Assembly (NCBI RefSeq): GCF_018350175.1
Contig: NC_058368.1
Location: 23,190,001 to 23,254,000, forward strand
Source of the DNA: Felis catus
Taxonomy: Eukaryota
Length of the DNA: 64,000 bases
Direction of reading: 5' to 3'
Shown piece after piece: positions 7,657-46,286 of the stretch (position 1 is the stretch's first letter; each line of letters starts with the position of its first letter). The notes below the pieces were generated by a model. It made no database searches, was not told where the DNA came from, and worked only from the letters and a program-made list of their open reading frames with translations. The position numbers and the translations under genes are program-made.

Positions 7657-7796
7657 CTAGAGATGATGACCTTTGTATGCTAACAGGTGATCTAAATCTT
7701 CTTTAAATGGATTGTAGCCTTGTTCCTTTAAACACCGCAGTGCGCAGAAAAGCTGGGCCAGTGGAGGAAATTCTTCCCAGGGAACCCATTCCCAAC
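7657..7796 (-). CDS. NUDT15: Nudix hydrolase 15, coding exon 3 (last)
   Basis: Acceptor tttcttttctag; encodes (S)[48 protein letters not shown]; 140 nt, phase matches exon 2. Confidence 0.96.
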
Positions 7797-10426: not shown

Positions 10427-11280
10427 TGTGATATAAGGAATATATATATAAGGAATATATATGATATATTCCTTATATCATAATCTATATATAGCTTTCC
10501 TCCCTGTTTTCTGGCACAGAGTTCCCGAAACCTTTGTATTTTCCTAAGAGATAGGGACGAGAGGAACACTTGCTATCCATAATAAGCCTCTTTCAACCGT
10601 ACCTGAGTTTATGCTAATAAGCTGATGGGTGGCTGGGCTGAACCTATCCTTAGATAGGTTCAGAACTGGGGGCTGGTGACCAGAAAGATACATCCCACCT
10701 GAGGAGAGAGGAGAGGAGCTGGAGATTGAATTAATCACCAGCAGATAATGATTTAATCAATCATAGAGACTATGATAATATGTACCAATCCCATTACATA
10801 CGAACCTCTATGAAAACCCCACACAACAGGATTCAGAGAGTTTTCTGGGAGGTGAACACGTCAAGGTGCTCATTGAGAGTACGGATGCTCTGCGTCCCTC
10901 CCTCTGCCCACCTTGCCCAGTGCGTCTTCCATGTGGCTGTTTCTGAGCTGCTTCCTCTATAACAAACTGGTAATGTAAGTAAAGTGGTTTCCTGAGTTCT
11001 GAAGGCCATTCTAGCAAATTACTGAACCTGAGGAGGAGGTTGTGGGAACCCCAATTTATAGCCAGGTGACCAGAAGTACAGGAGGCCAGGACTTAGCGAC
11101 TGGTATTTGAAGTGGGTGCAGTCTTGTGGGACGGACTCTGTAATGTTTGGGATCTGACACTGACTCCAAGTAGACAGTGCAAGAATGTAACTGAATTACA
11201 GGGCATCCAATTGATGTCCGGAGAACTATTTGATGTGAAGAAAAGAGCCACAGGTTTGGTGTTGGAGTGTAGTGAGTAAA
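10427..11280 (+). mobile_element. MER21-like ERV LTR in NUDT15 intron 2
   Basis: Starts tgtgatata; contains ctggcacagag, tttatgctaat, gggggctggtgaccagaaaga and gatttaatcaatcat motifs recalled from MER21. Confidence 0.75.
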
Positions 11281-12474: not shown

Positions 12475-12671
12475 TTTCATTTTTTTCAGGCTCTGTGTTC
12501 TTTGGTTCTGAATCATAAGTCATGTCCACTTCCCCTTTCATTAGTATTGTCACATAATGGTAATTTTCTTTCTTATCAAAGGAATTCACGACTGAGGCAA
12601 AGCGAACATTTTTCAAGCGAAGAGCTGCTTCTTCCCAGGTTTCCCTTTGAGCACATTCTTCCCACGTTTCC
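12475..12671 (-). CDS. NUDT15: Nudix hydrolase 15, coding exon 2
   Basis: ttttccag acceptor and GTAAGA donor; 197 nt; encodes (G)[22 protein letters not shown]...EPEKNE, completing the Nudix box [24 protein letters not shown]. Confidence 0.97.
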
Positions 12672-14113
12672 CTGGAAAACAGAAGCACAGCACTGTATTC
12701 AATTTTAGTTACATAACTTATTATTTTTTTGCCATGAAATTCCTGCCTAGAAATTTCTAGTCTAAAGCAAAAAACAAAAAACCCTGTAATTGGCTCTTGC
12801 TTTCTAACAATCAATCAACAACCCTGCCTTTGGACATTCTCTTTATCTCAACTATAAAGTATCTGAAGTTATCTGAAGACCAAAAGGACTTCCTATTGAG
12901 AAAAAAAGAACATTTAGCCAATTCAGCACTAGTTCACGTGCCTGGCAACTGTATGCAATCAGGAGACAGTTAAGGATACAGTTAAGAGCACAGGCTTTGG
13001 AGTCAGCTAAACCTAATAAAAAGAAGTATTACTACTTTCCAACGGGGTTGTTGCAAGTGTATCAATAAGTGGATGATGTCTTTTCCTGCAGTCTCAGAAT
13101 TTTCGTTGAAGCCTTAAAATTCAGGACAATAGGCAATAAACACCTCAAATTCTAAAGAGTATGGCAAGAGAGCAAACAGATGCCATCGAAAGGCTTGCAA
13201 GTCTCTTGACCTTCACCCTACCCAGCCTACATAATAAGGAGATTTAGGGCAGGGAGGAAAGTTATGAATTTTCAAGCATAGTAGCAACGTTTCCCTTCAT
13301 CCTGATGAAAGGACAACTCTGCCTGAAGCCAAGTGAGAGGTGCTTCAAGAAAACTGATCACAGAGATTGAGTGTGATTCCCAAGGAGATACTGGTGTGTT
13401 CCTCCCCTGCTAAAGTCATATCGAGCTACAGAAACTCACAGGCCTGTGATTCAGAGTAGAGGTGGTACAAAGGTAAGAGCTCTTGGGCAAGTCTAAAGTG
13501 TGTCCCTCGGTGTTTAGGGATGTACGTGAATAGAGAAGCTGACGTTTATTCCCACTTTGAGAATCTGGAAAGCAGGAGACTGGCTACAGAAGCCCACCAT
13601 GAATGAGCAAGGAGAAAGGGTGACAGTGAGGGCATTACTCCCATTGTGAATTTTCTTCTGGGTCCAGTAGATGCTACAAGAGACTGCTGGGGATCCCAGC
13701 AGAAAGAAAAAGCAAGATGGTGTTCTAATAAGCAAGAGCTAAATCAGCCACCTATGTCTGAGAACTGTGCAGGAGAGACATCCTTGTGGGATTTCCAAAC
13801 AACCAACAGACATACCCTGAGGAAGAGGGCACAACACCCAGAGGGCACCAATGGATGGATCACAGCAGCACTAGTCATGTAAAAAGTTTGGCCCACCCTC
13901 TCCCTCCCCAACATCCTGGAGAGGGAAGGAAACCAGAAACAGTGAGAAAAGGAGGAGGTCTTCCTCCTCTCTCCTTTCCCCACTACAGACAAATGCTTGG
14001 AAGTGGATCATAATGACCAAACGTGATTTATTTTTCTAATCAAGTGACAGGAAAACTGTAGAATTTGCAGGAAATGTCAGAGAACAGCAGAAAAGGGAAA
14101 GACAACAGAAGGA

Positions 14114-14888: not shown

Positions 14889-16253
14889 TTTATCTTAATT
14901 ATCTAAAAATGATAAACTTGATGTTTTTTAAAATCCTGAAAACCATTTAAAAAATTCCATGTGCTAAAAGATCATAGGAATTCCATGTTTTATCAAAGAC
15001 AAAGTCTGATTAAAAGGCACCTGCATCAAGTCTCTAACTAGCACTTTATAACAAATAGGTAGATTACAAGAATATAGTCAGAATGTAAGAAATTCTAATG
15101 ACCCATACTCTTCAACATGGGATGGTAAAAAAAGGGAAAGAGGGATTACTGTTAGATTTGGAGACTTAAATTTATCAATCCCAAATTACAATCAATCCCA
15201 AAGTACAATCTTCCTTTGATCTTGATTGGTAGAAAACAATACATTTTCAAGACAAATGGGGAAAGTGGTACAGACTGACTATATCACAGGTTATTAAAGA
15301 ATTATCTTGTTAAGGTGTGAAAACGTATTTTCTTAAGGTGTGAAAATGGAGTTACATTTTTTAAAAAAGCCTATGACAGGTACATAACGAACTGTTTATG
15401 GGCGGTATAATAAATGTCCGCGTTTTCCTTCAGAAGAGTCTAGAAAACAAGGGATCTGTATGTCTGTTGGGATGGAGCAGTAAAGATGAAACAAGAACAA
15501 GCCAAGTAGTAAGTATATGAGGATTCACCAACTGTTTACTTTCATGTATGTTTGCACTTTCACACTAATGCAAAAACAAGCGCTGGCTCTGATCGCTTTA
15601 GATACTGTTCATCCACCGTTGACTTTAACCTATTCTCACTTCAGAACCCACCTTTTAGCAAAATCCCCGGCTTTCCGCACCATTGGGTAGATCTGACCCT
15701 TAACTGTCCAACTTCCTTTATCGGTCTGATCCGCCATCAAACACAGAATGCCACGTTAAAGAGTGCTCCGTCCAACCCCCCCACTGTATAGATGAAGACA
15801 CTGAGGCCCAGAGTTTCACTAGCCCATGTGCTTGGTCACGGCGCAGCCAAACCTGCGGGGGCAGGACACAGGCCGTCCATCCGTGTACGTTTAGTGCACA
15901 GCCCGAACCGTGCAAGTGCCTGAACTGCCACAACTGGGCTAGATCTTCATAAAGACCCACTTTCCGCCTCTTATATGTAAACATTAAGAAAAACACACCC
16001 TACACATCAGCCCGCAGGCGCGGATAGAAGGCTGCCGGCAGAAAAAGGACTGGGCTGGCGGGGCTCAGGCCGACCACAGACCCTTCGCCAGCCCTCCGCA
16101 GCTCAGCGCCCCCTCCCGGCCGGCGCTTGCACCCAGGAGCGCGGCGGCCCGAGGAGAGAACAGAGGAACGCGCGAGATGACGCAGCGTCGGAAAGACGCA
16201 ACGCACGGGGAGAGCTCGTCCTTCCCGTGCAAGTTTGGCTCTCCTTCGGTGGG

Positions 16254-16360
16254 CTCGGTGGTAGCTCACCCGAATTCCAAATGGCCCCCGGGGAGTTGAT
16301 AACTGCCTCGGTGGTTGCTCACCCGAATTCCAAATGGCCCCCGGGGAGTTGATAACTGCC
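16254..16360. repeat. 53-bp tandem duplication across the NUDT15 exon 1 / intron 1 junction
   Basis: Copies at 16254-16306 and 16307-16359 differ at one base (16263 a vs 16316 t). Confidence 0.95.
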
Positions 16361-16480
16361 GGCTCCTATAATCCCTTTCCTCTTCCCCAGGAGGACGCAA
16401 CGAGGATGCTTGCTGCTAGTCACCACTACTCCTACCGCGACTCCAAGCCGCCTACCCTGCGGCTCCGCGCGGGCCGTCAT
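16323..16480 (-). CDS. NUDT15: Nudix hydrolase 15, coding exon 1
   Basis: ATG at 16480; [52 protein letters not shown](G); donor GG|GTGAGC; 158+197+140=495 nt = 164 aa plus stop. Confidence 0.97.
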
Positions 16481-17160
16481 AGCGCGCGAGACCCGGCAGA
16501 GGCTGCGGGAAGTGACGTTCGCTCCGCCCCATGGGCCACGACCAGTGTCGCTGAGCCTGCGCGGGTCCCTGAAATCAAAGCCCGAGTCCCTGGGACGTAA
16601 CCTTCGTGCGTGGTGTCTCTGCCTCACGTGGGGATCCCAGCTTGAGAAGTGTCGCGTTGCCTACCCCAGGACTGCCCGTCAAGGTTTCGTTTTAAGTAAT
16701 GCCACTTACTGTTGTACTTTCAACGTTTATTATTCTCTATTCTCAGATTTCTCCATCATGCGTTTACCAGCCACACGCTTTTATAAACCTCTGGGCCTTT
16801 GCACTTCCCATTTCTTTGTGTTTGGGTGAACTTCACCACCACAGTAAATTAATTCTAATTATAACTCCAGTCAGTGTTGGACCAGGACAAGGACGGATAG
16901 TATAGAAACAACCTAGTATAAATAATTGAGAGTATTAACACAACATGGGAAAAAATTAAGGACAAACAATAAATTGTGCTGGAAGGAGCTAGATATTTGA
17001 GAGGAAAGAGAGCCACTGTTCCAGTTGTTTGCACACCATGCACTGGCAAAATAATCCCACCTGAAACAGGATTGTAATGAAAGTGAACTAAAAACGAGCA
17101 AATAACTAGACTTCGGATGGGGAGCATTTAATTTTTTTTTCATTAAAATAAATTAAGTTT

Positions 17161-46077: not shown

Positions 46078-46123
<46 letters not shown>

Positions 46124-46286
46124 CAGAAACAGGCTCTGTGCTGACAGAGAGAGAGAGAGAGAGGATCAGAAACAGGCTCTGTGCTGACAACCGAGAGCCC
46201 CATGCAGGGCTTGAACTCATGAACTGTGAGATCATGAACCTGAGCTGAAGTTGGATGCTTAACTGACTGAGCCACCCAGGCGCCCC
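46028..46286 (-). mobile_element. Carnivore SINE with (GA)n expansion and internal ~43-bp duplication
   Basis: ggatcagaaacaggctctgtgctgaca occurs twice (near 46120 and 46163). Confidence 0.92.

Follow-up and report, generated by a model that had tools for sequence, protein, structure and literature searches.

The boundary between exon 1 and intron 1 of NUDT15 in the domestic cat (Felis catus) is present in two adjacent, almost identical copies, and the question that this raises is which of the two resulting 5' splice sites (donors) is used to remove the first intron, and how much of the output of the gene is lost if the second one is used. NUDT15 hydrolyses the active nucleotides of thiopurine drugs, and low activity of the enzyme leads to severe myelosuppression in people. 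The locus was examined within a window of 64,000 nucleotides (contig NC_058368.1 of assembly GCF_018350175.1, positions 23,190,001 to 23,254,000, numbered here from 1), which belongs to an assembly of 2.43 Gb in 71 contigs. In what follows, D1 is the donor nearer the start codon, D2 is the donor nearer exon 2, and a slash marks a splice boundary.

NUDT15 was identified as a three-exon gene on the minus strand of the window, with the ATG of the first coding exon at 16480:

16323..16480, minus strand: coding part of NUDT15 exon 1 (158 nt), with the ATG at 16480-16478
12475..12671, minus strand: NUDT15 exon 2 (197 nt), preceded by the acceptor ...TTTTCCAG/G
7657..7796, minus strand: coding part of NUDT15 exon 3 including the stop codon, part of the D1-spliced coding sequence

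Joining 16480-16323, 12671-12475 and 7796-7657 gives a coding sequence of 495 nt, the translation of which is exactly the 164-residue protein named by NCBI as Felis catus NUDT15 isoform X3 (P0097). Pfam analysis of this protein placed a NUDIX domain (PF00293) at residues 13-130 (E 3.2e-21), and its closest relatives are the NUDT15 proteins of other felids, with 98% identity to that of Prionailurus. The Nudix box has the consensus GX5EX7REUXEEXGU, and residues 48-70 were found by eye to fit it. Comparison with 11 other feliform sequences showed no disabling change in the cat coding sequence. One substitution, V157L, is unambiguously specific to the cat, while T37I (in a three-state column) and E86K (also found in Leopardus) are candidates. 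The cat thus carries one to three lineage-private substitutions versus zero to two in the 11 other feliforms, counts that are too few to indicate either constraint or relaxation, and the evolution of the protein is as compatible with continued function as with a young duplication.

Further coding features of the gene were observed. A 96-nt in-frame cassette exon (10603-10698, minus strand), flanked by AG and GT, lies between exons 2 and 3, and its inclusion reproduces exactly the 196-residue cat isoform X1 (P0100). The same 32-residue insert is annotated in Prionailurus, Leopardus, Panthera pardus, Neofelis, Acinonyx and Herpailurus, and the cassette looks like a felid-wide exonisation within the Nudix fold. 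An alternative coding exon 1b (15652-15737, minus strand) is located in intron 1, with an ATG at 15737 and the donor AAAAG/GTGGGT after 15652. It starts the 172-residue cat isoform X2 (P0098), which is without residues 1-53, gives a partial NUDIX match and is annotated in five other felids. An alternative acceptor, ACAG/TGCTG... (12672-12692, minus strand), is found 21 nt upstream of exon 2 and would add seven residues after Gly53; isoforms of 171 and 203 residues that use it are annotated in Leopardus geoffroyi and Herpailurus yagouaroundi, and were not among the cat records seen. The 213-residue models from lion (Panthera leo, P0105) and tiger (Panthera tigris, P0108) begin within an in-frame upstream ORF, 49 codons ahead of the usual ATG. 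The residue at this start is Val, not Met, in the cat (ORF 16319-16660), and the 49-codon extension is therefore unavailable there. The N-terminal extension of lion and tiger may be an annotation choice.

Tandem Repeats Finder (TRF) reported an array at 16254-16360 with a period of 53, 2.0 copies, 98% matches, no indels and a score of 207. A repeat search delimited the two copies as 16254-16306 and 16307-16359, identical at 52 of 53 positions; the sole mismatch (on the plus strand, A at 16263 versus T at 16316) falls at intron +7 of each donor. In gene orientation, the 53-nt unit joins 37 nt from the end of exon 1 to 16 nt from the start of intron 1, the latter opening with GTGAGC:

16307..16359, minus strand: upstream copy of the 53-bp unit, in which the end of exon 1 (37 nt, 16359-16323) is followed by intron-type sequence (16 nt, 16322-16307); intron +7 is A (16316)
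16254..16306, minus strand: downstream copy of the 53-bp unit, in which the repeated exon end (37 nt, 16306-16270) is followed by the start of the remaining intron (16 nt, 16269-16254); intron +7 is T (16263)
16317..16325, minus strand: donor D1, CGG/GTGAGC, with intron +1 at 16322; its use leads to the annotated 164-residue NUDT15
16264..16272, minus strand: donor D2, CGG/GTGAGC, with intron +1 at 16269; its use lengthens exon 1 by 53 nt and forms the 16270/12671 junction that is required by the public protein record P0124, described below

Both junctions read TTCGG/GTGAGC. The two donors are 53 nt apart and identical from -37 to +6, so that they share the same U1-binding 9-mer (CGG/GTGAGC), and first differ at +7 (in gene orientation, A in D1 and T in D2). 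The repeat is not due to chance, since only four TRF rows in the whole 64-kb window reach a score of 100, two of these being low-complexity arrays. The original prediction had put at this boundary a 53-bp tandem duplication with one mismatch, composed of 37 nt of exon 1 and 16 nt of intron 1, with two identical TTCGG/GTGAGC donors at 16322 and 16269 and a 164-residue protein as the product of splicing at 16322. TRF and the repeat search returned the same coordinates throughout, both donors were read on the minus strand, and the translation equals the annotated isoform X3. A small tandem duplication of 53 bp, with 1 nt of microhomology at its junction, would have copied the exon 1/intron 1 boundary, and the NUDT15 pre-mRNA would as a result present two donors of equal intrinsic strength. 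Predicted RNA structure gives no consistent preference: over four folding windows the 9-mer of D1 had a mean unpaired probability of 0.15-0.20 and that of D2 one of 0.25-0.41, two local-folding settings ranked the donors oppositely, and thermodynamic folding does not separate them.

Elsewhere in the window, a second two-copy tandem duplication was found at 46103-46189. It is perfect (period 43, 100% matches, score 174) and its unit starts with a GA run.

Two decayed processed pseudogenes of NUDT15, L007 (G000:C1:209137537-209137875) and L008 (G000:C16:6107656-6108018), were identified in the same genome. They are old, have approximately 73% identity to the cDNA, contain several stops each and join exon 1 to exon 2 with the 53 nt missing; both align unbroken to the D1-spliced cDNA and in two pieces to the D2-spliced cDNA. 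They show the ancestral junction and at this level of identity most likely predate the duplication, and they have no bearing on present donor use.

When exon 1 is ended at 16270 instead of 16323, frame 0 of the resulting cDNA encodes 53 residues, followed by a stop codon:

16319..16321, minus strand: in-frame TGA that is read if D1 is unused, codon 54 (nt 160-162 of the coding sequence)

The predicted GGG TGA after residue 53, in the Nudix box and with two exon junctions downstream, is indeed seen in the D2-spliced translation, codon 54 lying within the box as defined by the consensus given above. The 53-residue product covers just positions 3-39 of the 134 positions of the NUDIX profile, and the next in-frame ATG of the D2 cDNA would yield only the last 68 residues of the protein. 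Whether or not the transcript is degraded, its product is without the catalytic motif. From the end of the stop it is 49 nt to the exon 1-2 junction and 246 nt to the exon 2-3 junction, which is the last one. Nonsense-mediated decay (NMD) is described as following a 50-55-nt rule, with stops in a start-proximal zone of approximately 150 nt tending to escape it (PMC12668785). By this rule NMD of the D2 mRNA is predicted, the stop lying 246 nt upstream of the last junction. The expectation that D2 transcripts are NMD targets holds in this respect, but the case is borderline, as nt 160-162 lie barely (approximately 10 nt) beyond the soft 150-nt escape threshold. NMD of the D2 transcript is therefore best regarded as likely, perhaps incomplete.

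Public gene models disagree on the donor. NCBI models for the cat (164 and 196 residues) and for eight other felid genera all have the D1-type junction ...GGHLEFG/ETWEE, although such models show what yields an open frame and are not a measurement of donor usage. A search with cat residues 54-164 as query gave as its best match a different kind of record, P0124 (UniRef100_A0ABI7ZBG6), a Felis catus protein of 160 residues without a Met. Its sequence is identical throughout to the +2-frame stop-to-stop ORF of the D2-spliced cDNA and cannot be obtained from the D1 cDNA:

16270..16415, minus strand: exon-1 part of the Met-less ORF of P0124, in the +2 frame through D1 and the 16-nt intron copy, with the NUDT15 frame regained in the second copy

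The ORF starts at 16415 and, beyond the second exon copy, extends into exons 2 and 3. An annotation pipeline has therefore produced a transcript model that covers at least 16415 to 16270 without a gap and is spliced from 16270 to 12671. As the first 37 residues of P0124 resemble nothing, this model is unlikely to have been derived from protein homology, and we infer that it came from transcript data followed by automatic choice of an ORF. Under the Ensembl rule a Met-less ORF is accepted if its length exceeds twice that of the best ORF with a Met, and for the D2 cDNA these lengths are 160 versus 68. When residues 1-49 of P0124 were used as query, the only candidate returned (one of one) was P0124 itself, with no second D2-type record in the cat or in other felids. 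Public annotation is thus split between the D1 protein of the NCBI models and the Met-less, frame-hopping D2 protein of one UniRef record. This is database-level evidence that D2 can join exon 2, and P0124 does not give the abundance of the transcript. It may reflect real use of D2 or the ambiguous placement of reads that the repeat causes. The 37 nt upstream of the two donors are identical, so that a junction read covering no more than 37 nt of exon 1 is equally compatible with either, and for the same reason Logan contigs built with k=31 cannot separate D1 from D2. Annotators of this gene should note that short-read junction counts are ambiguous here unless the reads extend more than 37 nt into exon 1.

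Repeats of this kind have been described before. The cat unit holds an exon end and an intron start, its donors are identical in the U1-binding 9-mer, and the repeat belongs to the known kind found in F7, CBS, IFI6, LMNB2 and PDGF. The 37-bp minisatellite of human F7, the first unit of which spans the exon 7/IVS7 boundary, offers five to nine identical donors, of which just the most upstream is used, the downstream ones being functional once those upstream have been mutated (Borensztajn et al. 2006, PMC1557585). In the same report, the authentic site alone is used in LMNB2 and PDGF, the authentic site plus two pseudo-sites are used in CBS and IFI6, and the upstream site is used in all five of the natural cases listed (PMC1557585).

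With these precedents, the account that we favour is that D1 is dominant and D2 at most a minor poison site, although our confidence in it is evenly poised between acceptance and rejection. D1 would still carry most of the splicing and lead to the normal 164-residue Nudix hydrolase. D2 would act as a reiterated pseudo-donor used at a low level. Its mRNA, stopped at codon 54, would be non-productive and would probably be removed by NMD, although this is not certain. On balance the gene would lose a modest part of its output at most; the allele may be a mild hypomorph and is unlikely to be null. The sequence and the records show the anatomy, the occurrence of the duplication in many runs, the exact D1 product and a public protein model derived from a D2 transcript, whereas the balance between the donors, the fate of the D2 mRNA under NMD and the extent of any lost output are inferred. 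Several analogies point away from dominance of D1. The junction duplication of FGG suggests that such changes can be severe, and duplicated donors in model substrates gave conflicting outcomes. Furthermore, the precedents concern internal exons and repeats that are mostly intronic, whereas the cat repeat affects a first exon and 37 of its 53 nt are exonic. The duplicated exon sequence just upstream of D2 could also act as an enhancer of D2.

A rather unlikely alternative, which nevertheless deserves attention, is that D2 is wholly silent in vivo, like the pseudo-sites of F7, LMNB2 and PDGF, that P0124 is an artefact of the duplication, and that the output of NUDT15 is unaffected. P0124 is the single record in favour of D2, as found with its residues 1-49. 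Reads with a short overhang are ambiguous here by construction, and a few unspliced reads could bridge the gap of 16 nt. Wild-type F7 showed no use of pseudo-sites in 50 additional clones per construct, and LMNB2 and PDGF agree with it in using the authentic site alone (PMC1557585). However, P0124 requires an unbroken model that reaches from 16415 or further upstream, across D1, to 16270, which goes beyond misplaced short overhangs, and the pseudo-sites of CBS and IFI6 are described as constitutively usable (PMC1557585).

The opposite alternative, which is the stronger form of the original prediction, is that D2 takes at least half of the splicing and that the reference allele is a strong hypomorph or near-null behind an intact ORF; it is in our judgement unlikely. 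It would draw on the identity of the donors from -37 to +6, on the retention of the whole native intron downstream of D2, which is also nearer the acceptor, on the presence of a D2 model in public annotation and on the severity of the FGG duplication. Eperon and colleagues reportedly saw the donor closest to the 3' splice site prevail where U1 occupied both. The unusual azathioprine sensitivity of cats, currently ascribed to low TPMT, would also accord with it (PMC6327590). The original prediction had held that the intron-proximal one of two duplicated donors is often competitive. This rule derives from model substrates, in which the results conflict, early experiments with duplicated sites in globin genes having given opposite answers in different laboratories, and natural repeats use the upstream site (PMC1557585). 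The use of the upstream site in all five natural donor-reiterating repeats thus stands against a strong D2, as do the D1-type NCBI models. So does the lack of coding decay, with one to three lineage-specific substitutions, an argument that is weak if the duplication is young. Loss of NUDT15 is tolerated in people, and purifying selection need not, for this reason, have removed a strong hypomorph.

All of these readings presuppose that real cats carry both copies. In an index of sequencing runs, 14 of 14 cat runs hold every one of the 103 sampled words (a share of 1.00) from 15900-16900. These runs represent 12 samples from seven studies; nine of them are flagged as a possible source of the DNA analysed here, and the other five come from three samples and three studies. 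Among the 971 31-mers of this interval, 39 or 60 are specific to the duplication, depending on which copy is retained, and given random sampling the probability that none of the 103 sampled words was among them is 0.011 or 0.001, respectively. RNA rows of the same index hold shares of 0.98 to 0.14 of the sampled words. A 21-mer of the exon end and donor gave no stretches in metagenome contigs and none in genome contigs, neither set offering DNA of another felid. Consensus errors of long-read assemblies can produce small tandem duplications, but an assembly artefact with a single copy in real cats is hardly credible against the presence of all 103 words in every run, the five unflagged ones included, the chance of at most 0.011 that no duplication-specific word was sampled, the one-base difference between the copies, which is not expected from a collapse or expansion error, and the spelling out of the copy-to-copy junction by P0124. 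The 53-bp duplication is taken to be real, an artefact being very unlikely, and it is a common, possibly fixed, feature of the domestic cat, with the proviso that a single-copy allele in a heterozygote is invisible to the word test, as all or nearly all of its 31-mers lie within those of the duplicated allele.

The duplication affects a gene of pharmacological relevance. Poor tolerance of azathioprine in cats has so far been explained by low TPMT alone (PMC6327590). A search of the literature on NUDT15 with feline or cats returned nothing on the duplication, the sole match being a gene list in a selection-signature study of the Cornish Rex. It is conceivable, though we consider it quite improbable, that the common or fixed cat allele is a strong splicing hypomorph, that at least half of the primary transcripts are lost through the duplicated donor, and that cats are constitutively low in NUDT15 as well as TPMT, which would amount to a second, unrecognised cause of thiopurine (azathioprine) myelotoxicity. 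Since one of the two equal intron 1 donors in the cat reference allele is poisonous, the allele is a candidate, open to direct and inexpensive testing, for a further cause of azathioprine sensitivity. With two copies and in a first exon, it is also a natural test case of how identical 5' splice sites are chosen, for which the rules are unsettled.

In comparison with known systems, what is new in the cat is the combination of two copies, a unit of mostly exon sequence, a first exon and a pharmacogene. The repeat resembles that of F7 in that its first unit spans an exon-intron boundary, that identical functional donors follow the authentic one and that downstream use would shift the frame. F7 differs in having five to nine copies, polymorphic in number, of a unit with 4 exon and 33 intron nt at an internal exon, versus two copies of a unit with 37 exon and 16 intron nt at the first exon of cat NUDT15; in addition, the silence of the F7 pseudo-sites was shown experimentally, whereas the donor usage proposed for the cat is a prediction. 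The minisatellites of CBS IVS13 and of IFI6 (6-16) intron 2 are alike in that downstream copies are used beside the authentic site, as is proposed here for D2, and are unlike it in having many more copies (PMC1557585). The FGG junction duplication also copies an exon end together with its donor and leads to aberrant transcripts with premature stops. It measures 403 bp versus 53 bp in the cat, its main product results from intron retention and not from a second donor, and it is a rare disease allele, whereas the cat duplication is a common allele of the species. Finally, human loss-of-function alleles of NUDT15, such as R139C and the 6-bp repeat indel of exon 1, lower the amount or activity of the enzyme and cause thiopurine myelotoxicity. 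They affect the same gene, and exon 1 hosts small tandem-repeat changes there as well. These human alleles change the protein, whereas the cat duplication leaves it intact and could act solely through the choice of splice site.
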